Below are positions 8,321-43,473 of a stretch of 64,000 bases of DNA, in pieces. The notes under the pieces are model-generated. The model saw nothing but the letters and a program-made list of their open reading frames with translations. It had not been told where the DNA came from and made no database searches. The stretch is from the NCBI GenBank assembly GCA_029555385.1, contig JAKPSH010000288.1:26718-90717 (forward strand). Direction: 5' to 3'. The translations under genes and the position numbers were made by a program. Position 1 is the stretch's first letter. Each line of letters begins with the position of its first letter. The stretch comes from Pseudomonadota bacterium (GTDB lineage Bacteria; Bdellovibrionota_C; UBA2361; SZUA-149).

Positions 8321-8371
8321 GCCTTAAACAAAGCGTCGGGACGGGCGGGCTTTTGCACGAGCTAAGATTTT

Positions 8372-8803: not shown

Positions 8804-8849
8804 GAACGGTTCCAAGGTGCTGACATTACGGCAACGCATTCGTAAGTCC

Positions 8850-9128: not shown

Positions 9129-9139
9129 GCCCGACTACC

Positions 9140-10942: not shown

Positions 10943-10965
10943 TTTTGCTCCGCTTTCTCAACAAT

Positions 10966-11622
10966 TCAGAAAAGTTTCAGCTCCTCGCTGACCGCCTCAT
11001 GCACCATGGCGAGAAACAACTCCCGCTCAACTTCCTCTGCTCCAAAGCTCGCCAACAGCGGCGTCATTTGCTGACAGTCTAGCCAATTCACACCTCTCTG
11101 CTGCAGGTAGTCAACCAAAAAACACAAACAGAGTTTTGAACCGTCAGTCTCCAAATAGTACATTGATTCACCAGCAAACATCTTACCAATAGCCACCCCA
11201 TAAAGACCACCCAGAGTTTTTGCCTCTAAGAGACACTCAATGCAGTGACAATACCCCGCCTCGTGCAAAGCCACGTAAGCGCTTATCATTTCCGGGGTAA
11301 TCCAGGTGCCTTTTTCGCCTTTTCTATTGTTGGCCTCAGCGCACCTGGAAATTACGCTCGCAAAAGATGCGTTAATCCTGAAGTCATATCGGCCGCTGCG
11401 CAGCTTTTTCTTTAGCCGCCGTGGAACATGAAAGCGGTCAAAAAAAAGCACTGCGCGCTTAGGCGGGCAAAACCATAACAGCGGGTAATCACCTGCGACC
11501 GGCCAAGGAAATATTCCGTTGCGGTAGGCAAGCAGCAACGACTCCACATCGAGGTCGCCGCCCGCCGCAAGCAGTCCGCTTTCGTCAGTCAACGAGACAT
11601 CAGGGAAGGCTCGGATAACCAT
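10966..11622 (-). CDS. aat: Leucyl/phenylalanyl-tRNA--protein transferase
   Basis: 'LLAYRNGIFPWP', 'DYPLLWFCPPKRAVL', 'ITPEMISAYVALHEAGYCHCIE', 'GGLYGVAIGKMFAGESM' match the L/F-transferase family. Confidence 0.85.
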   Translation of the reverse strand: MVIRAFPDVSLTDESGLLAAGGDLDVESLLLAYRNGIFPWPVAGDYPLLWFCPPKRAVLFFDRFHVPRRLKKKLRSGRYDFRINASFASVISRCAEANNRKGEKGTWITPEMISAYVALHEAGYCHCIECLLEAKTLGGLYGVAIGKMFAGESMYYLETDGSKLCLCFLVDYLQQRGVNWLDCQQMTPLLASFGAEEVERELFLAMVHEAVSEELKLF

Positions 11623-11650
11623 GGGTCGACAGTATCGCCCCGCACACCTG

Positions 11651-12757
11651 TTACTGCAACCCCGAAGCGTCTTTAGGCATTATTGTCACTTCCACACGGC
11701 TGCGCAGCGGACGAACGGCGGCAAGCGCCCATAAACGCTGAACAAGCTCATCGTTGAGAATTACGTTTGCTTCCAAAACAGTTTTGCCGTCACGCGCGAC
11801 GATCGGCTCAATGATCAGCATACCTTCACGCAGCTCACCAAGCTCAACCAAGAACCGGCGTGCTCCCCATTCCTCGGCGCGCCGGTGAGCCTCCAGCGTG
11901 CTGCCAGATGCTGGACGTCCGCCGGAAGCAGAAGTCTCCGTCTGCTGTGGCGGAACAGCCGACGCGAGCTGAGCATTCTGCAGCGTTACGTGCGCGGTTA
12001 CTGCTTCTGCAAGCATTTGCATCACAGCTTTGCGCACATTTTCACAGGCAATTGGATAATCATGTCTTTTGAAATAATGAATGGCCCGATGTGCGCCATT
12101 TGGATCCCAATACCGGTAGCGCCAACAGCTTCGCGATATCAGCTCAACCCCCAGGACGATTTGCCCGCCAATAGCCTCCGGCGAGGCAACGTCTTTAGCT
12201 GTGCGGCGGAGAAGCGCTGCGGCGGATGCAAGAATATCCTCAACTCTTGCGTCACCGATATTTTTCCCGACAAAAGATGCATTGGCCATGAATTCTTCGG
12301 CGAGGATCTCGGCTGCTTCATTGCTGAAATGGCTAACACAATCCTGCCGCAAAGCGGTCTGCTTACCCACGCGCTGTTCCCACTGCGCAAAAATCGCGGC
12401 AGTGCGAATAGCCCGGTGCTGCCCAGCATCAAGCGCAAGCATGTTAGCTATCGCTGATGAAACAAACACCGAACGCCGGAGATGAAGCCCGGCGTCTGTT
12501 CCGGCGGTGCTGCGCAAAAAGGCGGCGACCGCTTCCGGCAGCTCGCCGGGAGGCGCAAGAATATCGTCGACGAAATCATCGCTATGGTGCGCAATGGCAA
12601 ATACTTCACCGCCGCAGCTATTCTTTAATTTTGCCGGATCGGGATTAGCGCGGATTCTCTGCCGAATCTGCTCTGTACTGTCCTCAACAGGACCCCGGAC
12701 TCCCCGGCGAGCTGCAAGCCGTGAAGGATTCTCCTCCGGAAGCACAATGGCTCGCAC
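11651..12757 (-). CDS. Hypothetical cytoplasmic protein (no motif recognised)
   Basis: Long ORF with coding-like composition; no nameable family. Confidence 0.45.
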   Translation of the reverse strand: MRAIVLPEENPSRLAARRGVRGPVEDSTEQIRQRIRANPDPAKLKNSCGGEVFAIAHHSDDFVDDILAPPGELPEAVAAFLRSTAGTDAGLHLRRSVFVSSAIANMLALDAGQHRAIRTAAIFAQWEQRVGKQTALRQDCVSHFSNEAAEILAEEFMANASFVGKNIGDARVEDILASAAALLRRTAKDVASPEAIGGQIVLGVELISRSCWRYRYWDPNGAHRAIHYFKRHDYPIACENVRKAVMQMLAEAVTAHVTLQNAQLASAVPPQQTETSASGGRPASGSTLEAHRRAEEWGARRFLVELGELREGMLIIEPIVARDGKTVLEANVILNDELVQRLWALAAVRPLRSRVEVTIMPKDASGLQ

Positions 12758-13006
12758 GAAACTCGACTCCCTGCTCTTACTCTCTCGACGGCTAACTTCT
12801 CTTGTTTAATCGGCACCGGCCCGGGAAAGACTTATGATTCAGACATGTTCTACGACGAGCATCTCTCGCTAATTATTGTTTCTGTTCACTTACTTAATGA
12901 AATGCGGGTTTCTCCTAGCGGCAATCCGAGATATGTCGCAGCTCATAATCAGGGCGTACACGAATCGCGGTGCTAACGCATTATAGGCCTGAAGGAAAAA
13001 AGTGAG

Positions 13007-13080
13007 TCGGGGTGAGAGGATTTGAACCTCCGGCCCTCGGTTCCCAAAACCGATGCGCTACCAGGCTGCGCTACACCCCG
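13007..13080 (-). tRNA. tRNA-Pro (anticodon UGG)
   Basis: Reverse complement 'CGGGGTGTAGCGCAGCCTGGTAGCGCATCGGTTTTGGGAACCGAGGGCCGGAGGTTCAAATCCTCTCACCCCGA': 7-bp acceptor stem, D-arm GCGC/GCGC, anticodon loop TT-TGG-GA, T-loop GGTTCAAAT; CCA not encoded. Confidence 0.85.
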
Positions 13081-13110
13081 GGAAGGCTGCAAAAATACCG
13101 GGTAAAGACG

Positions 13111-13737
13111 TTAAAAGCAAGGCGCTCTGAGTGCAAGCAGTTTCCCGAATAATTCCCGCGCCGCGCGGGCGCGAAATCCATTCTCGCAGGTAATGCTGAA
13201 ATCAACTTCAGCAAGCGTCTGCCCCAGCTCATCAATGAGCACAATTGGATCATAGCCAAATCCTTTATCGCCGCGCGGCTCGTATAGAATCGTTCCTTTC
13301 AGCTCCCCTTCCGCCCAAAGCACGGCTCCATTCGGATACGCAAGAACAAGCGTACAGCGAAAACACGCGCGGCGATCTAAGCCAGGCGCAGCCAATTCCA
13401 GCTCCGCTAATTCCGCGAGCACCTTTGCCATACGGACCTTATCCGACGCGCCTTCCCCGGCGTATCGTGCCGAGAACACACCCGGACGCCCGCCTAACGC
13501 CGAAATCTCAAGTCCTGAATCATCACCGATAGCCGGCATGCCGGACCACTCAGCAAAAGCTCGCGCTTTTTTCAGCGCATTCTCGCGGTACGACGCACCG
13601 TCCTCCTCAACCACAGGCGGAGCAGCCAAACCATGTGCACGCTGTATTTCTGACGGAGCAGCAAGAACCAGTGAATACCCGTCTGCCACAGTCTGCAGTT
13701 CTAGAATCTTGTTCGCGTTGGCACTGGCCACGAGCAT
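13111..13737 (-). CDS. rdgB: dITP/XTP pyrophosphatase (RdgB/Ham1 family)
   Basis: 'GLEISALGGRPGVFSARYAGE', 'FGYDPIV' Ham1 signature; start trimmed to the internal ATG giving about 209 aa (ORF track's 271-aa version has a non-conserved extension). Confidence 0.75.
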   Translation of the reverse strand: MLVASANANKILELQTVADGYSLVLAAPSEIQRAHGLAAPPVVEEDGASYRENALKKARAFAEWSGMPAIGDDSGLEISALGGRPGVFSARYAGEGASDKVRMAKVLAELAELELAAPGLDRRACFRCTLVLAYPNGAVLWAEGELKGTILYEPRGDKGFGYDPIVLIDELGQTLAEVDFSITCENGFRARAARELFGKLLALRAPCF

Positions 13738-13969: not shown

Positions 13970-14563
13970 ATGAGAAATCAATTTAATTATGTTGTTCCGT
14001 CTATTCTCGTTTTGTGGGTAGTGCTCGCGCTCATAGCCAGACCCGCAGCAGCCGAAGATTCTTATCAATGGACAGATCGCCAAGGCCGCGTGTTCTACGG
14101 CAGCAATCCGCCGAAAAACGCGCTGTCCGTAACCAAACTTCCGCCCAAAGCATTGTCGCGCTATTCATCAGACAGAATGCTCAGCCGGTTGGGCTGGAAG
14201 GGCCAAAAAACAAACAGCAAGACGCAGCCCGCCGAAAAGAAACCTATCACGCCGGCACGCCCGGCGGCGTTAGAGGCCGAAGAAGCAAGGGTTGAGCTTG
14301 ATGAGCAAGGGCAAGTCAAATCCTGCGTAGCCGCTGTGCGCAACAACGGAGAAAGCAGCGCCGTCGAAATTAATATCGCTTTCGATTTTCCGGACGGCAC
14401 CCTTGTGCCCGGAGTAGGGCCGAATTCTATTTCGCCTAACTCGTCGGCAGACTACGCGGTGCCGAACGAACTGCTGCCACTCCAGGTAAAAGCCGAAGAG
14501 TCCGCTGACGGCGCCAAGACAGCGCCCAAGCCGCGGGTTATTGTTCACGGCATCGGCCAGTAG
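13970..14563 (+). CDS. Secreted DUF4124-domain protein
   Basis: Signal peptide then 'YQWTDRQGRVFYGSNPP' matching the DUF4124 'W.D..G..hYsd.PP' pattern; 3' end overlaps the convergent glycosyltransferase gene by 19 nt. Confidence 0.6.
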   Translation: MRNQFNYVVPSILVLWVVLALIARPAAAEDSYQWTDRQGRVFYGSNPPKNALSVTKLPPKALSRYSSDRMLSRLGWKGQKTNSKTQPAEKKPITPARPAALEAEEARVELDEQGQVKSCVAAVRNNGESSAVEINIAFDFPDGTLVPGVGPNSISPNSSADYAVPNELLPLQVKAEESADGAKTAPKPRVIVHGIGQ

Positions 14564-16320
14564 CGAATCAGCGCAAAGTATCGTTCAGGCAAATCTGTCA
14601 TTCTTCCGCCCGCAGTAATAATCTGCACCGCCGCGCTCCAAGGAGGCTCCGGTAAAGCTTCAACCCACGCCCGCCGCACAAGGTAATATCCGGGCTGCGC
14701 AAGGCCGGCCTCGGGTTCTTGAAAACGCAGCGGGCCCGGATAATAAAAGAAAAAGCCATCGAGAGTTTCGTCCTCCGCATCCCGCAGCACGTGAAGGGTT
14801 TCCGCGCCTCCCAGCACCGCGTAAACCTCTTCCGCAAACTTTTGATAACTATGCGTGAAATTCTTTGCGCCGACACCGGGCAAAAGCAGCAACTGATATA
14901 GACCGGCAAGAAAGCAAACGAACCCGCAAAGCAACGCAAAATAAGAACGCTTACTGAACGCTTTGCGCCAGGAAACGGTAAAACCAGCCGCAAAAAGAAA
15001 AAAACAAAACGAAAAGCAGCCGAAGTTGGACACAACCAGCGCCGCGAAACTGCGCAAAAAAACATTGAGCCGGTAATTGTCACTTAAATCCGGGAAATAT
15101 GCGCCGCAAAGAACCACCGCTGCAAAAATCAGCGCCAGCGCCGCTGCTGAAGCATAACCGGACGCACGCAAGAAACATGAAAACAAGATATGCTCCCCCT
15201 TCCCGCCGCCTGCCGCGTGCTGCGCCAAGCGCGGCAGAACCGCAGCACAGATCAGACCGAGTGCCGGGAGCACCGGAAGAAGGTAAACCGCTCTCTTCCC
15301 GGAAGCCATGCTCAAGAACACGATTACCGACACGATCCAGATTAAAGCACCATTAAAGACGAACTTTTCCCCAGGCGCCTGCGGCAAGAATCGAGCGAGC
15401 TTCTTCCGCCTGGCCGGACAAAGATGCGACAGCAAGAGCAGTCCGGCGCAAAGAGGCAAGAAGACAGACCACGGCGCAAACTGGTCCCAGAAGACCACAG
15501 CGTAGTGATAAAACGGCTTTGCCGGAATTCCCGCACCTCCCGTGAAGCGGCGAAGATTTTCGAAAACGATCTGCCGCGCGAGAAACTTCGTGCCGCCTTC
15601 GAACGCAGCCAGCACATACCACGGGAGACTGATGGCCAGCGGCCAGAACCACCCAATACGTAAAATGCTTTGCAGTCCGCTATATCCGCCGCCTAAAAAA
15701 TAGGACACGGAGCCAACCACAAGCAGCGGGAGCATTACACCCAGCGGACCCTTAGTCAGCATCGCCAAGCCGCACAGCACGCCCATTACATGGTAGACAG
15801 CATCCGGCAATTCCGCCAGGCTGGAACCGCGTGATTTAAGCTGCCCGGCAGCCACAAGCCAGATCAGCACAGGCAGGACGGTCAGCAGGCAAAAGAGCAT
15901 GTCGACCCGGCCCGCGGCAGCGAGGTTAAGGAAGCCGAAACTTAAAAGAACGGCAAGAGCAGCAGTCCCGCCAGCACATACACCGCCGGATGTGGCTGCC
16001 GCCCACGCGGTTGCGGCGACGGTTCCCGCCGCCGCCAGTGCGGACGGCAGGCGCAGCGTAAACTCATCAAAATGTTCAAACACTTGGGAAATTCCGGCAG
16101 CCAGCCAGTGAAAGAGTGGAGGTTTAGAGGGAATTACTTGGCCATTTCGCAAAGGCAGCACAAACTCGCCGGAGCGTAAAATCTCTTGCACGACCGACCC
16201 TTCACGCGCCTCGCACACGCTTGACACCGGAGACATGAAAAGGTGCGGCACAATAAACAAGATGGTGACAACCGCCGCCGCAAGCGAGATACCGTAAACT
16301 TTTAGCTGCGGCCGGGACAC
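14545..16320 (-). CDS. ArnT/PMT-family (GT83/GT39) undecaprenyl-phosphate-sugar glycosyltransferase
   Basis: More than 10 TM segments; N-terminal 'FVLPLRNGQVIPSKPPLFHWLAAG' loop typical of ArnT-like enzymes. Confidence 0.7.
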   Translation of the reverse strand: MSRPQLKVYGISLAAAVVTILFIVPHLFMSPVSSVCEAREGSVVQEILRSGEFVLPLRNGQVIPSKPPLFHWLAAGISQVFEHFDEFTLRLPSALAAAGTVAATAWAAATSGGVCAGGTAALAVLLSFGFLNLAAAGRVDMLFCLLTVLPVLIWLVAAGQLKSRGSSLAELPDAVYHVMGVLCGLAMLTKGPLGVMLPLLVVGSVSYFLGGGYSGLQSILRIGWFWPLAISLPWYVLAAFEGGTKFLARQIVFENLRRFTGGAGIPAKPFYHYAVVFWDQFAPWSVFLPLCAGLLLLSHLCPARRKKLARFLPQAPGEKFVFNGALIWIVSVIVFLSMASGKRAVYLLPVLPALGLICAAVLPRLAQHAAGGGKGEHILFSCFLRASGYASAAALALIFAAVVLCGAYFPDLSDNYRLNVFLRSFAALVVSNFGCFSFCFFLFAAGFTVSWRKAFSKRSYFALLCGFVCFLAGLYQLLLLPGVGAKNFTHSYQKFAEEVYAVLGGAETLHVLRDAEDETLDGFFFYYPGPLRFQEPEAGLAQPGYYLVRRAWVEALPEPPWSAAVQIITAGGRMTDLPERYFALIRYWPMP

Positions 16321-21755: not shown

Positions 21756-22052
21756 TCATTGATTATTCCTTGTGCCGATGGACAGCCATTGCACCACTTG
21801 ATTCAACATCGCCTGTTCGCTTGCGAGCTGGGTATTCTGCTCCGGATCGCTCTCTGTCGCCGCAACCAGTTCCTCATATTTGCGCTCGATTCCAGATGCC
21901 AGTTTCGGCAAGTCAGTCAACTCGCCGAGTTTAGGCAGAAGCACGGCAAGGGGCACAACGGAAAGGCGTTCTTTGCTCCTGAGCGGATCTGGCGCGGTGT
22001 CATCACCATCTTGATCAAGGCCGTCCGGCCTGCCTTTCCTATTCCACCACAT
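21756..22052 (-). CDS. Hypothetical acidic protein (98 aa) immediately downstream of truncated flhB
   Basis: ORF only; no FlhB C-domain motifs (no NPTH). Confidence 0.35.
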   Translation of the reverse strand: MWWNRKGRPDGLDQDGDDTAPDPLRSKERLSVVPLAVLLPKLGELTDLPKLASGIERKYEELVAATESDPEQNTQLASEQAMLNQVVQWLSIGTRNNQ

Positions 22053-22061
22053 GACCCATCC

Positions 22062-22940
22062 CTATCTTAGTTTCGATTTCGCCCCCGGCGGCGCTTCTCC
22101 GCGCTCCCGGTGCGCGCTTTTCATTTCCGGGGCTTGGTCGGTCTCCCGGTATTCGGCCTCCAGCTCGGCCCGGCTCATCCGGTGTTCCTGCCGGAAGGCA
22201 AGCCATACCGCAACATAACCGCACACACCGGCAAAGAGGGAGAAAAACAGCGCAGTCTGCCAAACTGACATGAATAAACCTTTCGCCCAATCAAGTCTCG
22301 CACTTAGACTTAAGGCTGTCAAAAACTCTGTATTATCGGACAGCGCCGTGGAGACGACACCATTTCCCGGAGCGTTTCCGCCATCCAGCATCACGGAGCG
22401 TCCCACACCGGCTGCCGGCATTTTCGCAGGAAGAACGGTATACAGCAAAACGCAAGACGCTGCGGCCCAGACAGCGACAACCACGGCACCCGCACCGGCA
22501 GCGAGCAGGCGTTTTCTTGCACCATCCCAGATCCAGCCGCCGGATTTGAAGAAACGCGCCATACCCGGCTGAAAAAGCGCAAAGGAAAACAAGAATTTCG
22601 TCTGTAATGCACCAAGCAACAGCACTATCGCAAAAAACGGCACGACAAACGATAAAACTGTTTTGGCCAAAGCCCGGCTAATTTGCGCAGCACTCAGCGC
22701 TAAAGCCTTTGAGGCTGGTTCGTTTCGCAACCATTCGCTGCCGGATGAAGCGCTCCAAGCATCCCGGGCTAAAGCGGCAATGCTGGCTGCCGCCACAGGC
22801 AAACTGACTATGGCTCCCACAAGCGCGCCCAGCACCACGGCAAAACACATCACCGCTTTGCTGTACGGAACAGTCCCCGAACTGCGCAGCCGCTCTAATT
22901 TAAGCGCCGTAGGCGGAAACCTTTTCATTTCCTCAGCCAT
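22062..22940 (-). CDS. flhB: FlhB/SctU-family export-gate protein, membrane domain only (C-terminal cytoplasmic NPTH domain absent)
   Basis: N-term 'MAEEMKRFPPTALKLERLRSSGTVPYSKAV' matches the FlhB 'EKTE.PT.KKL...R..G.V..SKE' start; 4 TM segments; ends at '...EMKSAHRERGEAPPGAKSKLR*' where the FlhB linker begins; no NPTH in any frame downstream. Confidence 0.65.
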   Translation of the reverse strand: MAEEMKRFPPTALKLERLRSSGTVPYSKAVMCFAVVLGALVGAIVSLPVAAASIAALARDAWSASSGSEWLRNEPASKALALSAAQISRALAKTVLSFVVPFFAIVLLLGALQTKFLFSFALFQPGMARFFKSGGWIWDGARKRLLAAGAGAVVVAVWAAASCVLLYTVLPAKMPAAGVGRSVMLDGGNAPGNGVVSTALSDNTEFLTALSLSARLDWAKGLFMSVWQTALFFSLFAGVCGYVAVWLAFRQEHRMSRAELEAEYRETDQAPEMKSAHRERGEAPPGAKSKLR

Positions 22941-22962
22941 AATCAATTCCCAAGCGAGATAA

Positions 22963-23856
22963 TCATTGCGGCTCCTCGCCCGTGGACGGATGCACATCCG
23001 CAGGCTTCGGCGCCGGAGCCGTCTGAACTTTCATTTGCGCAAGCACGCTGCCCGCGCGTTTCGGCATCAAGGACTCCGAAATGAGCTGTGACAAATCGCC
23101 AGCAATTGAATAAAGACAGAGAGCCAAAACAATCAGCACACACACTGAGCGCACCGCCGCCGCGATATCTGCCTGAAATGCCTGCGCCAAATATCTCTTC
23201 CATGGCAGGTGCACAAAATCAATAATCAGGGCCGCGGCAAACATGGGCAGCGCAAAAACGAAAGCAACGGCCAGAGCCGCTTTGGCGCCGTGCGCGATCA
23301 GCTCCGCCACCTGCGGCGTCACGGCAAATTGCACATAACCCGCCATGCTTTCCAGATACGGAAAAGCAAATAAAGATCGTCCAAAAAATGCCCATAAGAA
23401 AGGAAAATCCGGACTGGCGCAAAGCAGAGCCGCAACGAGCAAAAGCACAACCGTCTCCACCGGCGGCGCGCTTTGTTCCGGAAGTGCCCGGTTCGAGTGT
23501 TTTGCAAAGGTCACTGCGCTGAGCCAGCGGGCAAAAGTCTGGGCAGCATAGCCGGCAAAACCCGCGGCAACCGCGAGAACTAAACCAATTCCGGCCTCAA
23601 CAATCAGCACGCCAGCCCGCGGCATTACTGGCGCCGTTGCGGAGACACGTCCCGCCTCAATCGCCAGTAAAACATCGAACAGCGATAAATCCCGCAAAGC
23701 AGGCACATAGGGGATAAAGAAAACGGTAAAACCAACAGCCAGAACAAAACGCACACTGAGCGGCACTACCCGCCACGGAAGGATACTTAAAGCGCAGAAA
23801 AACACGGAGATGCGCACAGTTAAAGCGACCAGGCAGAGCACGGCAAACGAAGTCAC
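22963..23856 (-). CDS. fliR: Flagellar/T3SS export-gate protein FliR/SctT
   Basis: Six or more TM helices, position between fliQ and flhB, about 297 aa with extended C-tail. Confidence 0.7.
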   Translation of the reverse strand: MTSFAVLCLVALTVRISVFFCALSILPWRVVPLSVRFVLAVGFTVFFIPYVPALRDLSLFDVLLAIEAGRVSATAPVMPRAGVLIVEAGIGLVLAVAAGFAGYAAQTFARWLSAVTFAKHSNRALPEQSAPPVETVVLLLVAALLCASPDFPFLWAFFGRSLFAFPYLESMAGYVQFAVTPQVAELIAHGAKAALAVAFVFALPMFAAALIIDFVHLPWKRYLAQAFQADIAAAVRSVCVLIVLALCLYSIAGDLSQLISESLMPKRAGSVLAQMKVQTAPAPKPADVHPSTGEEPQ

Positions 23857-23877
23857 AAAACAGCTTCCCTCTCTCCC

Positions 23878-24132
23878 TTATTGATAGAGCGAAAGATTGC
23901 CCCACGCACTTGCTGTAAAAGCGAACAACTCTGAGAAAAAACGCCCGAGTGCAAAATACCCCACGAGAAACAGCCCGGCCAGTTTTCCCGTAAAACTAAT
24001 GACCTGGTCGTCGATTTGCGCAGTTACACGCAGCACCGCCGCAACAAGCGCACCGCAAATTACCGCTAAAAGCACCGGAACACTAAGGTGCACTGTGAAG
24101 AGCAGCGCGTTGATTATTTGCGTTGTATCCAT
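23878..24132 (-). CDS. fliQ: Flagellar/T3SS export-gate protein FliQ/SctS
   Basis: 84-aa two-helix hairpin membrane protein 'MDTTQIINALLFTVHLSVPVLLAVICGALVAAVLRVTAQIDDQ' typical of FliQ. Confidence 0.75.
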   Translation of the reverse strand: MDTTQIINALLFTVHLSVPVLLAVICGALVAAVLRVTAQIDDQVISFTGKLAGLFLVGYFALGRFFSELFAFTASAWGNLSLYQ

Positions 24133-35171: not shown

Positions 35172-36449
35172 TTAACTCAGGCAAGCTTTAACTCCCGGGG
35201 GTACTCCCCGCCGGTACGGATTTACTTCGAAAGCCTCCTTCAATGCCGTACCAATTGCGGCAAAAATCCCACGCCAAGTAGTATCGGCCGGCTCGTAACT
35301 GCGCAAATAAATCATCAAACTGGCCGACAATCCGCCGCAAAGACCGTCGATGAAGTCGTCTAAGTCTTCTGAACGCAACCCCCCGATCGCGTCACGCCCA
35401 ACGATCAGCAGCTTTTGCATCTGCGCCCGGTCGCCAGTTTCTGGAATCACGCGCCAAAACTTTCTGCCTTCAACGCTTATCGCCGCATGCACATTGTAAG
35501 CCAACAAGTCTTCAGGCTGGCGTAAATTGCTTCCTGCCCCATTTATTCCATACTCAGTCATGCGCAGTTTAAGAATTTCCAATAGGGCCCTTCCCAAAAC
35601 AAGACCAATGTCCTCCAAAACAACATGACTGGAGCTGAGGAATTTGGCGTGAAATTCGACATTGACCATTGCGCCAAGATTTGCAGCGACAATTCGCATT
35701 AGTTCCGGAATACCGGCAACAGCAGCGGATATGCTTTTGCCTGCTTCGATTCGCGCGGCACTTTGCTCGTCCGAACGGAAGTCAACGCTCAGCACGACGC
35801 TGGTTTCAGCAGTACCGCGCTGCACGACTGCTCGATGCTGTCCACGTTCAAGCACGGCGATTTCATGTTTGGATTCCACTATCTCAAGCTTGTTGTCCGC
35901 CAGCAGTCGGCGCTGCGCTATCTCCTTGGCTTCAGGTGGCGTGAAGATCCGGCTCAAAGCAATGCCCACCCCCCGGAAAACCCCCTCCCATGTGTGATGC
36001 GGGTCTTCAAAACTTAGAATAAGCACGGTAATCCGCGCGGACATCCCTTCCGCCAGTCCCCGAAGGAGCATCAGCATAGGTTCTCCCGAGGACACTTGCT
36101 CACAGCGCGAAGCAATAAATTCATCGATATTAACCGCCCGCACGGCGGACAATTCCACGCCGCTCTCCCCGAGCATGATTTCAATTTCCGCGCCGCCATC
36201 ATCAATCATCCCCAACGCCGCTGATTTGCTGCCAAACCGCGCAAAACCGGCGATTTCCTTGCCAAGCAGCATCCCGAGCCGATCCCATTGCTGATGACCG
36301 CAAACAAGATCAATCTCCAGCCCCATCCGCCAAGCGATATGCTCGATCATGTGACTGACGAAGTCATTAGGCGTTTCAATCCTCTTCCGTGATACATCGC
36401 CGAAAGCTAAGCGAATGGTTGTTTCTGTAGACGTATCGGATGGCGGCAT
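35172..36449 (-). CDS. Tandem-duplicated imidazoleglycerol-phosphate dehydratase-like protein (HisB-type position, metal-ligand motifs partly degenerate)
   Basis: Two IGPD-like modules: module 1 'FVSHMIEHIAWRMGLEIDL...GHQQWDRLGMLLGKEIAG ... EDPHHTWEGVFRGVGIAL'; module 2 'ELMRIVAANLGAMVNVEFHAKFLSSSHVVLEDIGLVLGRAL ... ADTTWRGIFAAIGTAL'; last gene of the his operon. Confidence 0.6.
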   Translation of the reverse strand: MPPSDTSTETTIRLAFGDVSRKRIETPNDFVSHMIEHIAWRMGLEIDLVCGHQQWDRLGMLLGKEIAGFARFGSKSAALGMIDDGGAEIEIMLGESGVELSAVRAVNIDEFIASRCEQVSSGEPMLMLLRGLAEGMSARITVLILSFEDPHHTWEGVFRGVGIALSRIFTPPEAKEIAQRRLLADNKLEIVESKHEIAVLERGQHRAVVQRGTAETSVVLSVDFRSDEQSAARIEAGKSISAAVAGIPELMRIVAANLGAMVNVEFHAKFLSSSHVVLEDIGLVLGRALLEILKLRMTEYGINGAGSNLRQPEDLLAYNVHAAISVEGRKFWRVIPETGDRAQMQKLLIVGRDAIGGLRSEDLDDFIDGLCGGLSASLMIYLRSYEPADTTWRGIFAAIGTALKEAFEVNPYRRGVPPGVKACLS

Positions 36450-36460
36450 CGAAGCGTCTC

Positions 36461-37789
36461 CTATTCGAGGCGTATTTTTACCGAACGGCAGTGCGCATCC
36501 AGAGATTCCACACTGCTTATTGCACTAATCACTGGTTCCAGTGCACGCAGTCCTTCGCGAGTAAGACGCTGGATTTCAGATTTTTTAAGAAAAGTATCTA
36601 CCCCGATTGGCGAAACAGTCTTCGGCGCGATCCCGGTCGGCAAGCAATGGTTGGTTCCGCTGGCATAATCACCTACGGCAACAGGTGCATAAGGACCGAG
36701 AAAAATCGAACCAGCGTTCACAATCGTTGCACATATTTCGTCCGGCTCGGACGTGATAATCTCAAGATGTTCAGCGCTGTAATCATTAGCAAAAGCGACA
36801 ACTTCTTTCATATCACGGAAAACAATAATAGCGCTGTAGCGGCCAAGTGCGGTTTGGGCAACGTCCCGGCGACTGAGCAGCGGTAGCTGTCGGGCAATTT
36901 CCTTCCGCGTTTCTTCGGCTAAAATGCGGCTCGCTGTAGCCAAAACCGCGCATGCGTTCTGGTCATGTTCACAGCGAGCCAGAATATCGGCAGCACAATA
37001 ATCGGGACGTGCTGTTTCATCCGCAATAATCAATGCTTCTGATGGCCCCGACAGCATATCAATCGCCGTGCCGCGCAGGGAGACCTCCATCTTCGCCGCT
37101 TGTGTGTAAATACTTCCGGGACCAGCAATTTTCAAAACAGGCTGAATGGTTTCCGTACCCAAGCTCATAGCCGCGACACCGGCGATTCCGCCAACGCGAT
37201 AAAGCTCATCCACGCCCGCGAGATCGGCAGCTATCAGCATCTCGTAGTGTTTGCCAGTCGGCGGAAAACAGGCGATAACCCGTTTCACACCAGCCGTCTT
37301 TGCCGCAACAGCGAGAACTTGCATGACCGTCGGCAACGGCACCTGCCCTGCAGGGACAGTAAGTCCTGCACTTTCGATTGGAGTAATCTTCCATCCGGTG
37401 GCAACACCCGGAACGAATTCGCTCATTTCCTGCCACCGCTTTGGCAGCTGGCGCTCGTGAAATTCGCGAGATATCTCGATCTGGCGGCGGATCATCGCCA
37501 CCACATGAGGATCCACGGCAGAATATGCTTCGGCGATATCGTTGGGAACAACACGGAGGCGTTCAACGCTGAAGTGTGGGTCATCGTAAGTGCGAATGTA
37601 TTCAACCAGTGCGCGATCGCCATCCGTCCGAATTCTTTCAATCCACTGCTGCGCCGCACTGCGCGCGGCACCCATTTCCTGCTGGGAGCGCCCCATCACT
37701 CGCTGCTTTATCTCCGCCGGAGCCTGGGCCCATTCGACTATCGGAATCAAGTTCTTTACCGTTTCAGTTTGATTCGTTTCTGGCTGCAT
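36461..37789 (-). CDS. hisD: Histidinol dehydrogenase
   Basis: 442 aa; 'IIVFRDMKEVVAFANDYSAEHLEI', 'GDYASGTNHCLPT' conserved regions. Confidence 0.9.
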   Translation of the reverse strand: MQPETNQTETVKNLIPIVEWAQAPAEIKQRVMGRSQQEMGAARSAAQQWIERIRTDGDRALVEYIRTYDDPHFSVERLRVVPNDIAEAYSAVDPHVVAMIRRQIEISREFHERQLPKRWQEMSEFVPGVATGWKITPIESAGLTVPAGQVPLPTVMQVLAVAAKTAGVKRVIACFPPTGKHYEMLIAADLAGVDELYRVGGIAGVAAMSLGTETIQPVLKIAGPGSIYTQAAKMEVSLRGTAIDMLSGPSEALIIADETARPDYCAADILARCEHDQNACAVLATASRILAEETRKEIARQLPLLSRRDVAQTALGRYSAIIVFRDMKEVVAFANDYSAEHLEIITSEPDEICATIVNAGSIFLGPYAPVAVGDYASGTNHCLPTGIAPKTVSPIGVDTFLKKSEIQRLTREGLRALEPVISAISSVESLDAHCRSVKIRLE

Positions 37790-37798
37790 CTTTACTCC

Positions 37799-38998
37799 TC
37801 ACGTAAATCGCTTAGACATTCGGCTCCAATGTTCGATTCTATCGAAGGCCTTATTTATATCGTCTTCCGTCCCGCCGTATGACATACGTACATGAGTCTC
37901 TCCGCCCGGCCCAAAGGCAGCACCGGGTATCGTGATCACCTTTGCTTCAAAAAGAAGCCGGTGCGCAAACTCGGCTGAATTAATATCCCATTTCAGATAA
38001 CGCGGCAGCACGTAGTAGGCTCCGCCGGGTTGGACATATGAGAAAAACTCCGCAAGGCTGTCTAATCGCGCACAAATAAGCTCCCGCCGCCGCGCGAGCA
38101 CATCACGCACGGTCTCTTCTTTGCACTCTGCGCGATTTGTCAATGCGGCAAGCGCGGCATACTGCGAAACTGTCGGCGCACAGATGACCGCCGCGTCATG
38201 CACTTTAAGGGCTTGCTCGATCACCTCTGCCGGCGCCACCATGTAACCCACGCGCCAGCCGGTCATTGCGAATTCTTTAGAGAAGCTCCCGCACAAAATA
38301 ACCATGTCCTTTATATTCGAAAACGATGCCAAGCTCTTATGGCAGAACCCGTCGTAGACAAGAAAGTCGTAAGTTTCGTCAGCAATAATATAAAGACCGT
38401 GCTCACGGGCAATTTTCACGATGACACTTAGCTCAGCGACGGAAAACACTTTCCCCGTCGGGTTCCCGGGGTTGCAGACAATCACTGCTTTAGTCTTTGC
38501 ACTAACTGCACGGCGTAATAATTCTTCGTCCAGTGCCCAGCCATCGTTTTCAATCAGCGGAACGAAGACTGGCGTACCGCTTGCGAACTTTACTTGTTCG
38601 ATATGTGAGGCGTAACTAGGATCAAAAAGAATGACTTCGTCACCCTCATCAACCAGACTGACAACTGCGGCAAAAAGCGCTTCCATCGCCCCTGCACTAA
38701 TAAACACTTCTAATTCAGGATCAATGAAACGTCCCGCAGTTTGCGCTATTTTCTGCGCAACAGATTGCTTAAGCTCGGGTACTCCTGGCTGCAGCGAGTA
38801 CTTCCCAATATCGGCATCATGTTTAAGGAGTTCTATCACCTGGCGGCGAATGTACTCCGGTGTTCGCACTGACGGAATGCCTTGTCCGAGCGAAACCGCA
38901 TCAGGAACCGACCGGGCAAGAAGCGGCATCTGCTTGATTGCAGACACTTCGATTCTTTTCACTCGTCGTGCAAAACCTAATGCCTTACTCCTTTCCAC
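37799..38998 (-). CDS. hisC: Class-I aminotransferase (histidinol-phosphate aminotransferase role by operon context)
   Basis: PLP-lysine region 'SFSKEFAMTGWRVGY', 'NPGNPTG'; position between hisD and hisN. Confidence 0.7.
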   Translation of the reverse strand: MERSKALGFARRVKRIEVSAIKQMPLLARSVPDAVSLGQGIPSVRTPEYIRRQVIELLKHDADIGKYSLQPGVPELKQSVAQKIAQTAGRFIDPELEVFISAGAMEALFAAVVSLVDEGDEVILFDPSYASHIEQVKFASGTPVFVPLIENDGWALDEELLRRAVSAKTKAVIVCNPGNPTGKVFSVAELSVIVKIAREHGLYIIADETYDFLVYDGFCHKSLASFSNIKDMVILCGSFSKEFAMTGWRVGYMVAPAEVIEQALKVHDAAVICAPTVSQYAALAALTNRAECKEETVRDVLARRRELICARLDSLAEFFSYVQPGGAYYVLPRYLKWDINSAEFAHRLLFEAKVITIPGAAFGPGGETHVRMSYGGTEDDINKAFDRIEHWSRMSKRFT

Positions 38999-39926
38999 AG
39001 CAAAATGCTCCAGTTATACGCAAATCAGCATCAACAGTAATCCGGCGCGACCGATCCGGCGGGACAACGGCCAATCCCGCATTCCACAGCGAAGAAAGCT
39101 CATCGACACGAGGAGCACATGCTACCATATGCACATCTTCTTCGATCCTCCCAAGTCTCACCTTCCAGCCCTGTGCACGCAATGCACCTAAAAACACCAA
39201 GTCATAGTCCGGGTAACACTTCTTGCCTTTCAAACTCGGCAGCCATAATAACCCGTCGACTTTGCCTTGATACAAATTCCATCCCGCCCAAACAGCAGAG
39301 TCATATCCTACGAATTCAAAATCATCAGCACTCCATATGTCCTCCGATTTATCCAGCTCTTCAGCAAAAGATTCGATGCCACCTGCATTGTAGTCAAAAA
39401 TATCCAGCCGGAGCTTCACCCCCGTTCGCCGCTTAGTTGTCCAATCAACGACCGGAGGAGATGACGACATTGAGGAAAAAACCGCGCCATTTGAAACCAT
39501 GTTCCATGAATACTTAAGCTGTCCCGTTAGGCTGCATAGACCCGCCATCACACCCCACTCATCGCTGCCCCGGCAAAAAGCATTTGTTCCGTCCAATGGA
39601 TCAATGATCAGTTGCCAACGCAAGTCATTCGTTCGGAACATTTCTTGGTCAGACGCCAACCTCTCTTCTGACTTGATCAAGTAAGAACCGGCTAAAGAAG
39701 ACTGGCCAAAAAAAGCAAGCAGCAATTCTTGAATGGCATAATCCGCTTCCGTTACAAAATCGGCAGGCGCTTTTTCAGCAACAAAAGCGGCATTAATCCC
39801 GAGCTTACCCCGGGTAGCTGAAGCAATTTTCAGGATCTCGTCCACCGGAATCCGAGAGAACGCATCGGTTATATTAGAGTCCTCCACATCTTGCACACGG
39901 CGCTGGGTTTGGTCGTTCATCGGCAC
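38985..39926 (-). CDS. hisN: Inositol-monophosphatase-family phosphatase (HisN-type histidinol-phosphatase by context)
   Basis: 'WQLIIDPLDGTNAF' IMPase metal-binding motif; located within the his operon. Confidence 0.6.
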   Translation of the reverse strand: MPMNDQTQRRVQDVEDSNITDAFSRIPVDEILKIASATRGKLGINAAFVAEKAPADFVTEADYAIQELLLAFFGQSSLAGSYLIKSEERLASDQEMFRTNDLRWQLIIDPLDGTNAFCRGSDEWGVMAGLCSLTGQLKYSWNMVSNGAVFSSMSSSPPVVDWTTKRRTGVKLRLDIFDYNAGGIESFAEELDKSEDIWSADDFEFVGYDSAVWAGWNLYQGKVDGLLWLPSLKGKKCYPDYDLVFLGALRAQGWKVRLGRIEEDVHMVACAPRVDELSSLWNAGLAVVPPDRSRRITVDADLRITGAFCCGKE

Positions 39927-39930
39927 CGCC

Positions 39931-41196
39931 TTAAGAATGTCTGGATTTCGCCAAGCCCGGACGCCGGGTTACCTTGAGCATCCGCCGCCCAAGCTCCGCT
40001 TCCACATCACTCCAGGAGGCGCCATTTTTTATCAGCTTAACTAGGGTAAAATACAGCAAATCCGCAGCCTCACACACTGCTTCTTCGCTGTTCTCGGCTG
40101 CGACAACCTCTCCGGCCTCTTCCAGCAGCTTAGCCTCGAGCAATTCGCTATCATCAAGCAAACGCTTGGTATAGGATTCCGGCGGCGCATCTTTTACGCG
40201 TGATTGCACATGCCGGAACACATCGTCGATACCGCGCAGCGCACCCCAGCATGTGCGCGTTCCCAAATGACAGAACCCGGAACCGTGCTGGCGCACGGTA
40301 AAGCGCAGCGCATCTGAATCACAGTCCAGATCGATGCGCAGCAGCTCTTGCGCCGCACCGGATGTCTCACCTTTGCGCCAGATGCCGCGCTTTCGCGAAT
40401 GATAGACTCCCCGCCGCAGCGCTACGGCCTCATTGACGCTTTCCTGAGATGACCAGGCCAGGCCGAGGGCTATACCGTGCTCGTCGCAAACCACGGTCGG
40501 CCAAAGACCGTCGCTGCGCTCACTCTTCAGCGGCGCGGTAATTGCACGGGCCAGTGTCAGCCTGTTTGTGTATAGAGCCATCCCCACCTGCGCATCGATG
40601 CCCTGTGCGGCGAGTGCAGCGATTTCTTCCGCCGAAGTAATCCCCCCGGCCACAGTGATCCTCGCACCGCCGGCGGCGTTAAGCAGCTCACCGGTGCGCT
40701 CCAGTGCGCTGCCTTGCATCCGGCCTTCATGTTCGACAAATGTCACGAGAAACCCGCTGACGAAATCGCGAAGTTCGACCATCTTTTCCAGGATATTCCG
40801 TCCGGTTTTCGTCTGCCACCCTTCGACGACCACCTCACCGTGCACGGCGTCCAACGCGGCGATCAAACGTTCACGCGGAAGCTGTGCAAGTATTTCTGGA
40901 ACTGCTTTTGTCCCAAGGATTACCTTTTCCGCCCCAGCATCCAGCCATTTGAGCGCCGCTTCGACATCGCGAATACCTCCGCCAACGCGGCAAGGGCAGC
41001 GCCGGACAAGCGCGTTGACGACTTGCGCATTAGAGCCGCGGCCGAGCGCCGCATCAAGATCAATTACCGCAATTTCACCGGCCACGGAAAAACGCTCAGC
41101 TATGGGCAGCGGATCTCCGGCATCAAGTGCTTTCTCCTTGCCGCCGACCAATTGCACCGCCTGTCCATTCATCAAATCAATCGATGGAATAATCAT
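39931..41196 (-). CDS. hisA: Trifunctional fusion HisA (ProFAR isomerase) + HisI (PR-AMP cyclohydrolase) + HisE (PR-ATP pyrophosphatase)
   Basis: N-term '[19 protein letters not shown]...VGGGIR' (HisA); middle '[45 protein letters not shown]' (HisI); C-term '[10 protein letters not shown]...[10 protein letters not shown]...[11 protein letters not shown]' (HisE). Confidence 0.8.
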
Positions 41197-41972
41197 CGCC
41201 GGACCTCCACTCCATTTGCCGCAAGGAATTCTTTCAGCTCCTGCACAGTATAATTTCCTTCATGAAAAATAGAGGCAGCTAACACAGCATCCGCGCCGCT
41301 GCGAAGCGCATCCACCATATGTTCCGGAGAATCCGCGCCGCCTGAGGCAATTACCGGAACAGTCACCGCCTGAGATACAGCGTTGAGCAGTTCCAAATCA
41401 TAACCGCTACGCGTTCCATCACGATCCCAGCTCGTCAGCAGGATCTCACCGGCACCAAGCTGCACAGCCTGAACTGCCCATTGGACAGCGTCCAGACCCG
41501 TGCGGATGGTCCCCGAACGTATCACGACCTCCCAACGGCTCTGCGGCAGTTCATCTGCATCAAAAACCGGGCGCACAGCGGCATCAAGCGCAAGAATCGC
41601 GCATTGGCTGCCGAACTTTCCGGCGATTTCCTCGATCAACTGCGGGCGCGCCACCGCCGCGGTGTTGACTGAAACCTTGTCCGCCCCCGCTTCCAGCAGC
41701 GCACGCGCGTGTTCGCTGGTGCTTACGCCGCCGCCGGTGGTCAGCGGAATGGACAACTGCGCCCACACCCGCCGCACCGTGTCCAGATGCGTGGTCCGTC
41801 CTTCCGGCGTGGCCGAGACATCAAGAAACACGATTTCATCCGCGCCCTGCTGCTCATAAATCCCGGCCAGCTCCTCCGGACAACCGGCATCACGAAGTCC
41901 GGCAAAGCGCACTCCTTTTACAACCCGGCCGTCGCGGACATCAAGGCAGGGAATTATTCTTGCAGCAAGCAT
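41193..41972 (-). CDS. hisF: Imidazole glycerol phosphate synthase cyclase subunit
   Basis: '[19 protein letters not shown]', '[12 protein letters not shown]', 'PVIASGG'. Confidence 0.9.
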
Positions 41973-41992: not shown

Positions 41993-42610
41993 TCAAACAT
42001 CAAGCCAGCGTTTGATCAGACCTTCCCCCCAGACCCCCGACAACTCCGGATGAAACTGGCAGCATAGAACAGCACCCCGTTCGAAGCCGGCGACAAACCG
42101 CTCTCCATGCATTGCGTAAGCCGTTGACCACTGCGCAGGGATGCCGCTGGCGTAGTATGAATTCGCAAAATACGCATAACCCGGTTGAAGAAGCACGCAC
42201 CCCGCATCAGGCAAAACTTTGTTCCAGCCAAGCTGCGGAACTCGTACCGTGCCCGGGAAACGGCGGATTTTCCCGTCAAATACAGCGATGCCTTCTATTC
42301 CCGGCGTTTCCTCACTTCCGGCAAAAAGCAGTTGCAGTCCTAAGCAAACGGCAAATGTCGGCATCGACTGACTGATGCGGTCGCGCAGCACGTCAACTAT
42401 GCCGATACGCCGCAAGGTTTCCATGCCGGCGCCGAAGGCGCCGACCCCCGGGAGAACAAGCTTTTCCGCCGAAGCGATTTCATGCAAATCTTCGCTGAGC
42501 ACCGCCGCCGCGCCCGCGCGAGTCAGCGCTGCGATAATTGAAGCTGTATTGGCTATCCCGGTGCGCACGATGACTACTTTGGGAGCTCGGCTCATTCGAC
42601 ATACCCTCAT
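41993..42610 (-). CDS. hisH: Imidazole glycerol phosphate synthase glutamine amidotransferase subunit
   Basis: 'VLPGVGAFG', catalytic-Cys context 'AVCLGLQLLF', 'CCQFHPE'. Confidence 0.85.
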   Translation of the reverse strand: MRVCRMSRAPKVVIVRTGIANTASIIAALTRAGAAAVLSEDLHEIASAEKLVLPGVGAFGAGMETLRRIGIVDVLRDRISQSMPTFAVCLGLQLLFAGSEETPGIEGIAVFDGKIRRFPGTVRVPQLGWNKVLPDAGCVLLQPGYAYFANSYYASGIPAQWSTAYAMHGERFVAGFERGAVLCCQFHPELSGVWGEGLIKRWLDV

Positions 42611-43473
42611 GGCACAATTTGAGACGGGGAAGTAATCACGATATCAGACCCGCCGCGCTCTTTAATTTGCGGAATCAGCAGCGGCAGCGCTTCGCGCAGC
42701 ACCGCAGCTTTCACGGCATAACCGGCATCACCATGCAGCGGAGAGATCGTATGTTCTCTCATGCATGGAATTACCTCCAGCAGCCTCTCCAGGTCACTGC
42801 CCGATACATTGACTTCCAGCATGACACGCTTCCGGGCTTCCAGCACGGAGCGGACAACTAAAACAAAGCGGTCAATTACCGGCCGTTTCTGCGTGTCGCT
42901 CATTGCTTTTGGACTGGCATAAAGCCGGGTTGAAGACGGCATCAGCTCTTCGACAACATCCAGATTGTTCGCCTTCAGCGTCGAGCCGGATGCGGTATTG
43001 TCAACAATGCAGTCGGCATCTTCCGGCGGAAATACTTCAGTCGCACCATATGAACGCACAAACGTCGCCTGGAGTTTACGGCTTAAAATCCATTGTCTGG
43101 TCATTTGTTCGTATTCAGACGCGATAATCAATTGGCGATCGGGATTCGCGCCGCCGCTAAATAATCCGGCGGGCGCGGCCGCAACTACGGACACGGGGTC
43201 AAGCCCGGTATCGAGAAGCTCGATTACCTCCACACCGAGCTCCCGCACCCAGTCGGCACCGGCAAATCCCAAGTCCCGGGAGCCAATGGCCAGCATCTCG
43301 ACAATATTCTGCGGTTTCAGCATTTTTACGGAAAAACCCGGCAAAGAAACGAGCGGGCGATATGCACGGCTTCCCGCATGGATGCGTATTCCCGCTTCAT
43401 CGAGAAGTTTAAGCACGCCGGACTCCATTCTTCCTTTCGGAAGGGCTAGTTTAATCAATGCTTCTTTTTCCAA
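42607..43473 (-). CDS. hisG: ATP phosphoribosyltransferase (long form)
   Basis: 'LIKLALPKGRMESGVLKLL', 288 aa with C-terminal regulatory domain; first gene of the minus-strand his operon. Confidence 0.85.
   Translation of the reverse strand: MEKEALIKLALPKGRMESGVLKLLDEAGIRIHAGSRAYRPLVSLPGFSVKMLKPQNIVEMLAIGSRDLGFAGADWVRELGVEVIELLDTGLDPVSVVAAAPAGLFSGGANPDRQLIIASEYEQMTRQWILSRKLQATFVRSYGATEVFPPEDADCIVDNTASGSTLKANNLDVVEELMPSSTRLYASPKAMSDTQKRPVIDRFVLVVRSVLEARKRVMLEVNVSGSDLERLLEVIPCMREHTISPLHGDAGYAVKAAVLREALPLLIPQIKERGGSDIVITSPSQIVP

Follow-up and report, generated by a model that had tools for sequence, protein, structure and literature searches.

Imidazoleglycerol-phosphate dehydratase (IGPD), the enzyme of histidine step 6, belongs to a universally conserved pathway and is regarded as one of its most uniform enzymes. 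Herbicides and antibacterials are aimed at it as well, and its inhibitors are designed against the symmetric 24-site cage. The canonical monofunctional form (bacterial HisB, plant HISN5, yeast His3; PF00475; EC 4.2.1.19) is a chain of ~200 amino acids (aa) that carries two (D/N)xHHxxE motifs and assembles into a homo-24-mer with 24 identical sites. In E. coli and other gamma-proteobacteria, the bifunctional HisB joins a HAD-IIIA histidinol-phosphatase to an IGPD. Homo-oligomers of other kinds have become obligate hetero-oligomers by duplication and complementary loss, among them the trypanosomatid AdoMetDC prozyme, in which an enzyme is paired with its dead paralogue. We analyzed a 64,000-nucleotide (nt) stretch of DNA (contig JAKPSH010000288.1, of a Bdellovibrionota lineage; referred to as the window) in which the final gene of a his operon has about twice the length of an IGPD. 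The original prediction, made from the sequence alone, described two IGPD-like modules in this gene with metal ligands distributed between them and partly missing, and offered two readings, a working IGPD complemented within one chain or a pseudoenzyme with the real hisB elsewhere. We consider it likely, with a probability of roughly three in four, that this tandem gene encodes the organism's working IGPD in a duplicated, fused and subfunctionalised form that would have a single composite site.

35172..36449, minus strand: tandem IGPD gene, 425 aa plus stop, ATG start, final gene of the his operon

The two modules of the tandem protein

The Pfam IGPD model (PF00475) matched two stretches of the protein at 48.5 bits and passed its gathering threshold (cutoff 27). 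The NCBIfam HisB equivalog models matched residues 8-173 and 205-417, and the best score, 53.9 bits, missed their cutoffs of 189-443. When the modules were compared with canonical IGPD by hhalign, the probability was 97.2% for module 1 and 99.3% for module 2. The AlphaFold2 model, built with an 83-sequence alignment, had a predicted local distance difference test (pLDDT) score of 94.9 and a predicted template-modelling (pTM) score of 0.93, and both modules as well as their mutual packing are confidently predicted in it. Both modules have the duplicated beta3-alpha-beta-alpha half-domain and the four-helix bundle between two sheets that mark the IGPD fold, although module 1 starts at canonical strand beta2 and is without strand beta1 and the Glu21 turn. 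A Foldseek search of the PDB returned IGPD chains only, 29 of them at E < 1e-3, each covering one module (TM 0.7-0.83 to the target and <=0.39 to the query), and none of these matches had a tandem arrangement. The predicted 425-aa, two-module protein was thus borne out by Pfam, NCBIfam, hhalign, AlphaFold2 and Foldseek alike. The parts of the protein are listed here; chains A, A-prime and C are those of the canonical active site described in the next section.

35937..36449, minus strand: module 1, aa 1-171, IGPD fold with the 'chain A' face kept (hhalign, AlphaFold2 secondary structure, conservation)
35838..35936, minus strand: linker, aa 172-204, one helix and short strands, moderately conserved with zero invariant residues
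35175..35837, minus strand: module 2, aa 205-425, complete IGPD fold with the 'chain A-prime' and 'chain C' residues kept (hhalign 99.3%)

The two modules are ~17% identical by hhalign, which rules out a recent duplication. They have derived residues in common: the Glu173 position is preceded by a Trp, and the His145 position is followed by a GL..GL pattern.

Among 5.8 billion proteins searched, more than 500 relatives had 45-54% identity across the full length. These occur in two architectures, either as ~415 aa alone or as ~640 aa with an N-terminal HAD-IA phosphatase. When 1.84 billion 50%-identity representatives were scanned exhaustively with HMMER, 48 clusters were obtained at E <= 1e-30, of which ~25 were full length, and a scan of one genome per GTDB species located the tandem gene in 123 species, including complete genomes of cultured strains. 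The tandem IGPD family is therefore real yet small. We also considered whether the gene could be an artefact of assembly or annotation, in which two adjacent hisB paralogues had been joined by a frameshift or a missed stop. Only the unusual length speaks for such an origin; against it, the architecture is uninterrupted in the >500 database proteins, the cultured strains with complete genomes included, and the AlphaFold2 model is confident across the linker. The recurrence in 123 species excludes an artefactual fusion, and we give the idea almost no weight.

Active-site residues and a proposed composite site

All 535 IGPD sequences examined in a 2020 survey had HHxxE in each half (PMC7284861). 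In canonical IGPD, for which we use the Arabidopsis numbering throughout, Mn1 is bound by H47, H169, E173 and H74, and Mn2 by H73, E77, H145 and H170 (PMC4509728, Table 2). One chain supplies H73, E77 and H145, and its neighbour supplies H170 (PMC10978614). Chain A gives K177, H55 and D108, and a third chain, C, gives R99, R121, S199 and K201; Arg121 from this third subunit binds phosphate, and the metal motifs are located on two-fold axes (PMC6029752). The role of Lys201 in the C-terminal loop (C-loop) has been described as well (PMC4509728, PMC6029752). The legend of Bisson et al. places Glu21, the proposed acid/base catalyst, in chain A.

Each module was placed against four canonical sequences in a profile-profile alignment, and the residues at each position were counted in 190 unique family sequences. 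The motifs of interest are the following.

36327..36353, minus strand: module 1 helix alpha1, H33-M-I-E36-H37-I-A-W40-R41; H33 corresponds to His47 (Mn1 ligand)
36279..36299, minus strand: module 1 degenerate motif 1, G51-H-Q-Q-W-D-R57, at the His73/His74/Glu77 positions; unconstrained in the family except W55
35973..36005, minus strand: module 1 intact motif 2, D149-P-H151-H152-T-W-E155-G-V-F-R159, with His169, His170, Glu173 and Arg for Lys177
35802..35819, minus strand: module 2 turn R211-G-T213-A-E215-T, the canonical R-x-T-x-E-T; E215 corresponds to Glu21; R, T and E invariant in 190/190
35610..35636, minus strand: module 2 motif 1, S272-S-S-H275-V276-V-L-E279-D280; His73 and Glu77 kept, His74 replaced by an invariant Val
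35460..35474, minus strand: module 2 V-E-G-R329-K330; R329 corresponds to Arg121 and is invariant in 190/190
35352..35369, minus strand: module 2 E361-D-L-D-D365-F; D365 at the His145 position (Mn2 ligand), present in 189/190
35271..35291, minus strand: module 2 degenerate motif 2, P387-A-D-T-T-W392-R393, at the His169/His170/Glu173 positions; unconstrained except W392
35178..35222, minus strand: module 2 C-loop, N410-P-Y-R-R-G-V-P-P-G419-V-K421-A-C-L; K421 corresponds to Lys201; G419 in 190/190, K421 in 187/190

In module 1, H33, E36, H37 and R41 were invariant in 189-190 of the 190 sequences, with H37 and R41 standing at the phosphate-binding Gln51 and His55 positions. The D, H, H, E and R of motif 2 were invariant in all 190, and D83, the equivalent of D108, was kept in 189-190. 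The whole chain-A set (H33, H37, R41, D83, H151, H152, E155 and R159) was therefore retained at this level, while the positions of H73, H74, E77 and R121 were variable or deleted. His52, which lies in motif 1 of module 1, is particular to the window protein; since a His occurs there in only 5 of the 190 relatives, this motif is fully degenerate family-wide. Module 2 had the opposite pattern: H275 (H73) and E279 (E77) were present in 190/190, and the positions of H47, Q51, H55, H169, H170, E173 and K177 were unconstrained. Two further changes were family-wide, the replacement of His74 by an invariant Val (V276) and that of Arg99 by Gly, the arginine being lost in both modules.

By alignment, seven of the eight metal-ligand positions are filled across the two modules, with H145 as Asp; the eighth, His74, is a Val. 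The equivalents of Glu21, Glu173, Arg121 and the C-loop Lys are all present, E155 in module 1 and E215, R329 and K421 in module 2. Neither module has the pair of (D/N)xHHxxE motifs expected in each ~200-aa unit: module 1 has motif 2 only, and module 2 only the H..E of motif 1. In our alignment, P. furiosus IGPD has a Glu at the H145 position, and since that enzyme has been reported to be active (PMC4509728), an Asp or Glu at H145 is tolerated.

The retained residues are split exactly by the roles of chain A on one side and chains A-prime and C on the other, and in the alignment they are complementary between the modules. The retained ligands are invariant in sequences from several phyla, which points to purifying selection on one composite site and not to decay. 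One site of the two-fold pair would thus survive under absolute purifying selection, and the other would be dead and free to drift. The motifs had been read correctly in the original prediction (GHQQWDRL and an intact PHH..E in module 1; SSHVVLED and ADTTWRG in module 2), and the ligands are indeed distributed between the modules. They are better described as partitioned by chain role than as partly missing, since those that are kept do not vary; the comparison with named IGPD residues that it had proposed, which we ran as a profile-profile alignment, left His74 as the single ligand position gone.

These counts bear directly on the second of the two readings offered originally, in which the protein would be a catalytically dead scaffold or regulator kept in the operon, with the real hisB elsewhere. 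Damage to three of the four HHxxE-type motifs, together with scores far under the curated HisB model cutoffs, is what such a protein might show. As had been predicted, a tblastn search of the 64-kb window with four canonical IGPDs found no further IGPD there. On the other hand, the 7/8 ligand positions, the Glu173 base, Arg121 and the C-loop Lys are all invariant at one site, the other site being unconstrained, and the preservation of exactly one complete catalytic set is unexpected for a dead scaffold. The operon position and the HAD fusion found in many relatives (see below) also argue against a pseudoenzyme, which we consider very improbable. With the invariant partitioned ligands, the position in the hisB slot across unrelated lineages and the HAD fusion taken together, our alignments favour the first reading, an intramolecularly complemented IGPD.

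The proposed mechanism starts from the canonical parent, in which chains A and A-prime on a two-fold axis build two di-manganese sites and chain C closes each of them with Arg99, Arg121 and the C-terminal loop. We infer a pseudo-two-fold pairing of modules 1 and 2 within one chain, with the IGPD reaction as the one catalysed. Module 1 would act as chain A, with H33, H151 and E155 binding Mn1, H152 binding Mn2, H37, R41 and R159 binding the phosphate, and D83 as the Asp108 equivalent. Module 2 would act as chain A-prime and supply H275, E279 and D365 for Mn2. The role of chain C would fall to module 2 of a neighbouring chain, with R329 and the C-loop K421. Each chain would then have one live composite site, and the symmetry-related second site would have lost all its ligands. 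The Mn1 set would be a 2-His-1-carboxylate with three protein ligands, not four, because His74 is an invariant Val; Mn2 would be held by His, His, Glu and Asp. Provided that the cage is kept, its symmetry would drop from 432 to 23, giving 12 chains in a tetrahedral pseudo-24-mer with homotypic module-1 and module-2 trimers and with 12 live and 12 dead sites. We had also considered a relation of A and A-prime by the four-fold axis, drawn from the Mn-dependent assembly of trimers, and dropped it given that the metal motifs lie on two-fold axes (PMC6029752); the two-fold dimer is the best reading of the fused pair.

The tandem protein is like canonical IGPD in the fold of both modules, in the di-metal ligand positions, the Glu173 base, Arg121 and the C-loop Lys, and in its place in the his operon, and the same reaction is presumed. 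It differs in that two modules are fused and hold non-overlapping subsets of the site, His74 and Arg99 are absent, and there would be one site per two modules. It resembles pairs of the AdoMetDC prozyme type in that a symmetric two-site interface would have turned asymmetric, with one live and one dead site and a need for both partners. Unlike in those pairs, a covalent fusion joins the partners here, the ligand set is incomplete in each module alone, and the parent is a 24-subunit cage.

Genomic context and the HAD-IA partner

Pfam identified the his genes upstream of the tandem gene, in agreement with the prediction that it is the last gene of an otherwise complete his operon.

36458..36461, minus strand: GGAG ribosome-binding site, 8 nt ahead of the ATG and overlapping the hisD stop TAG (36461-36463), read from the sequence
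36461..37789, minus strand: hisD, histidinol dehydrogenase (PF00815, 433 bits)
37799..38998, minus strand: hisC-like class I/II aminotransferase (PF00155, 208 bits)
38985..39926, minus strand: IMPase-family gene, presumed hisN (histidinol-phosphate phosphatase), very divergent (PF00459, 38.5 bits)
39931..41196, minus strand: hisA-hisI-hisE triple fusion, 421 aa (PF00977, PF01502 and PF01503)
41193..41972, minus strand: hisF (PF00977, 255 bits)
41993..42610, minus strand: hisH, glutamine amidotransferase (PF00117)
42607..43473, minus strand: hisG, long form with a C-terminal regulatory domain (PF01634 and PF08029)

The spacing from hisD to the tandem gene is 11 nt, and the gene is translationally coupled in the operon hisG-H-F-A/I/E-N-C-D. 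Its 3' end is 1 base from a convergent response-regulator gene, so the tandem gene closes the operon.

Some other features of this operon were noted. In the IMPase-like gene, the Pfam Inositol_P match is limited to residues 49-131 and the TIGR02067 HisN model gave 26.5 bits against a cutoff of 275; the gene is presumed to encode the histidinol-phosphate phosphatase from its operon position alone. The hisA-hisI-hisE fusion is also present in the Bdellovibrionota loci L003 and L012, and we know of no described HisA-IE fusion. The 90%-identity cluster of the window protein (P0122) also holds HisD fragments and an 858-aa JGI protein, whose length is close to that of hisD plus the tandem gene (442 + 425 aa) and which may be a read-through fusion or a gene-calling artefact. 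A partial HisD fragment is the only named member of this cluster, and as its source is an Oligoflexia MAG it points to Bdellovibrionota as the origin.

To place the tandem gene in other genomes, 82 non-redundant loci with 10-kb flanks were scanned by blastp with his proteins and canonical IGPDs. hisC or hisD was adjacent and on the same strand in 51 of the 82. Nine loci, in addition to the window, had near-complete his operons with the tandem gene in the hisB slot and no canonical hisB there: two from Bdellovibrionota (L003, L012), five from metagenome-assembled genomes (MAGs; L004, L006, L008, L010, L031), one from a proteobacterial MAG (L018), and a ninth from Actinoplanes sp. HUAS TT8 (L078), a cultured strain with a complete genome. 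The gene order on a 1.87-Mb Bdellovibrionota contig was hisG-hisN-hisC-hisD-TANDEM-hisH-hisF-hisA/IE, and in a MAG labelled Parcubacteria it was hisG-hisC-hisD-TANDEM-hisN-hisHFA-PRT-hisIE. L004, a locus of a MAG labelled Parcubacteria, encodes at 8500-10614 a 704-aa protein with a glutamine amidotransferase and two His_biosynth barrels, apparently a triple fusion of HisH, HisF and HisA. In L005 a HAD-fused member leads the order HAD-TANDEM-hisC-hisD-hisS-serA, with hisS following the cassette.

In Actinoplanes sp. HUAS TT8 the tandem gene belongs to a cluster downstream of dnaE with the order hisD, HAD-TANDEM, hisC, hisD2, hisH, hisA and hisF; no canonical hisB was found in this his cluster. 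In M. tuberculosis and S. coelicolor, the main actinobacterial his operon has this same location. In this locus (7813-13639) HAD-TANDEM-hisC is flanked by the two hisD copies, and it looks like a transferred HAD-tandem/hisC/hisD cassette inserted in the native operon, where it would have replaced hisC-hisB.

An N-terminal HAD domain was fused to the tandem protein in 61 of the 82 loci. An IMPase-type hisN was nearby in none of these 61, compared with 7 of the 21 unfused loci, and the mutual exclusivity fits a pairing of histidinol-phosphate phosphatase (HolPase) with IGPD. By analogy, the data fit an assignment of the HAD as the phosphatase and of the tandem part as the IGPD, in which case the HAD-tandem, hisC and hisD cassette would encode four consecutive steps. 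The arrangement recalls bifunctional HisB, the fused relatives likewise joining a HAD to an IGPD beside hisC and hisD. It differs in that the HAD belongs to subfamily IA (beta-phosphoglucomutase/phosphoglycolate-phosphatase-like; TIGR01509 above cutoff, TIGR02009 below) and not to the IIIA type of HisB-N (TIGR01656 30 bits vs a cutoff of 84; TIGR01662 31 vs 44.6), and in that the IGPD part is tandem. The window protein itself is HAD-free, and its operon has the IMPase-like gene instead.

Relatives, competing readings and significance

Two uncharacterised metagenomic proteins, P0206 (232 aa) and P0222 (216 aa), have a single module, and P0222 adjoins a hisD. Both unite residues that the tandem family divides between its modules: NHM[IV][DE]H, a motif-1 H-V/T, GxNGxG, EGR, DPHHxWExxFR and a C-loop GxKGT. 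Unlike the tandem proteins they are unduplicated, and they keep Glu21 with all the other residues in one chain. In hhalign comparisons, the single-module relatives were intermediate between canonical IGPD and each module: they scored 130.6 to module 1, 174.5 to module 2 and 198.6 to canonical IGPD, and canonical IGPD scored 58 to module 1 and 103 to module 2. Since the derived residues are already found in the single-module relatives, the loss of His74 and Arg99 and the remodelling of the phosphate pocket predate the duplication. P0206 and P0222 probably represent the ancestral homomeric state, and the tandem form would most likely have arisen by duplication and fusion of such a single-module variant, followed by complementary loss.

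We also found two-module IGPD-like proteins in which the half-domains are permuted, namely P0171, P0173, P0177 (L087/L088, 8001-9266) and P0191 (L091, 4662-5900). The half-domain order is a-b-c-d in the family of the window protein, and c-b-a-d or c-d-a-b in the permuted relatives. A complete site in the c-b-a-d order is obtained only by nested pairing of the inner and outer halves. The Glu21 equivalent travels with the H73/E77 half-domain in every architecture examined. P0177 has as neighbours an amidinotransferase/ADI-like gene, IclR, LarA and a Liv-type ABC transporter and no his genes, which suggests that IGPD-like proteins may act outside histidine synthesis. The contexts of most other single-module and permuted relatives were uninformative, the contigs being short or unrelated.

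Several observations weigh against the tandem protein being a working IGPD with a composite site. Glu21 is absent from module 1, although the legend of Bisson et al. assigns it to chain A, and it is invariant only in module 2 (E215), the module without the substrate pocket; many relatives start with Met exactly at the Glu21-turn position of module 1. E215 may act from the A-prime or C module, its role may have passed to a different residue, for instance the invariant E36, or something else may keep E215 conserved. Neither module has Arg99, and residues of the phosphate site are changed (Q51>H, H55>R, K177>R), so the details of substrate binding differ. In Desulfosarcina ovata and several other Desulfobacterales, the tandem gene follows an ABC transporter and not his genes. 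It is the last gene after a PotABCD-like transporter (an ATPase with TOBE_2, a TAT-signal binding protein and two permeases) in D. ovata (L002, 5936-11257) and in Desulfogranum marinum (L071, 3696-11239), the order in the latter being hisD-SDR-ABC-TANDEM, where SDR is a short-chain dehydrogenase. Finally, a canonical IGPD was present in one of the 82 loci, that of an uncultured proteobacterium (L054), where a 576-aa HisC-canonical-IGPD fusion (1479-3209) with both HHxxE motifs intact ends 3 nt upstream of the tandem gene (3213-4454). The canonical and tandem forms are thus not strictly exclusive.

These observations could also be explained if the protein were an IGPD-fold dehydratase or metal enzyme with an altered substrate, in a histidine-related or another pathway, while a canonical HisB elsewhere made imidazole-acetol phosphate. 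The remodelled phosphate pocket (with R99>G in addition to the three changes above), the missing Mn1 ligand and the absence of Glu21 from the substrate-pocket module would suit such an enzyme, as would the co-occurrence in L054, the linkage to an ABC transporter and SDR in Desulfobacterales and the non-his context of the permuted P0177. However, the tandem gene is the sole IGPD-like gene in the nine scanned operons and in the window, and the exclusion between the HAD fusion and hisN adjacency fits a HolPase-IGPD pair. The derived pocket residues also occur in the single-module relatives, one of them next to hisD, and the residues that contact the imidazole and the metals are all kept. We therefore consider an altered substrate unlikely, though less so than a pseudoenzyme, and continue to favour a working IGPD with a composite site.

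Carriers of the tandem gene include Bdellovibrionota, Magnetococcales, Chromatiaceae and some Alphaproteobacteria; Desulfobacterales, including the cable bacterium Electronema; Thiotrichaceae (Thiomargarita, Marithrix, Thioploca and Beggiatoa relatives); and actinomycetes (Actinoplanes, Plantactinospora, Pseudonocardiales). Carriers with complete genomes include Actinoplanes (CP195646), D. ovata (AP021879), Ca. Electronema halotolerans (OW818675) and Thiohalocapsa (CP050890). It was also found in MAGs labelled Patescibacteria, Parcubacteria, Saccharibacteria, Peribacteria or Woesearchaeota. Six loci carry it under such labels or the label 'archaeon' (L004, L006, L008, L010, L011, L031); five of them have near-complete his operons resembling those of Bdellovibrionota, and L011, the 'archaeon' contig, is without a his gene in the locus. 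Patescibacteria-type groups and Woesearchaeota are normally without amino-acid synthesis, and for the MAGs with these labels mis-binning, mislabelling or transfer should be considered. In public databases the relatives are named 'hypothetical protein', 'HAD-IA family hydrolase' or, by automatic annotation at JGI, 'HisB'.

The background AT skew was ~0.05; the skew reached 0.32 at 14001-16000 and 0.26 at 22001-24000, and these peaks coincide with minus-strand open reading frames at 14545-16320 and 22062-23856.

A literature search for tandem, double, duplicated or split-site IGPD found no paper, and a search for hisB gaps in the carrier taxa returned nothing relevant. The tandem split-site IGPD is an undescribed form of a known enzyme, and in no fewer than 123 species it is most likely the 'missing hisB'. 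A fuller account would combine all of the above: a fused hetero-pair IGPD of 12 chains in a 24-module cage that is tetrahedral and not octahedral, with 12 sites; the true unannotated HisB of Bdellovibrionota, cable bacteria, giant sulfur bacteria (Thiomargarita, Beggiatoa, Marithrix), Magnetococcales, many Desulfobacterales and some actinomycetes; a HAD-IA partner that is a further, independent type of histidinol-phosphate phosphatase; and permuted forms that display a reshuffling of half-domains with the single split site kept. Whether this account is right in every part we judge to be evenly balanced.

For the evolution of the family, a half-of-sites, asymmetric IGPD would be a clean case of complementary degeneration after tandem duplication within a high-symmetry cage, with an apparent single-module intermediate still extant. 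For the mechanism, the family amounts to a natural mutagenesis experiment on which residue acts from which subunit, Glu21 included, and the fused HAD-IA domain is a candidate for a new histidinol-phosphate phosphatase. Because members are named 'hypothetical protein' or 'HAD family hydrolase' at NCBI, the genomes of cable bacteria, giant sulfur bacteria, magnetotactic cocci, predatory Bdellovibrionota and some actinomycetes may seem to be without hisB and be taken for those of histidine auxotrophs. In practice this affects how pathways are reconstructed in several well-studied uncultured groups, and some carriers are in culture.

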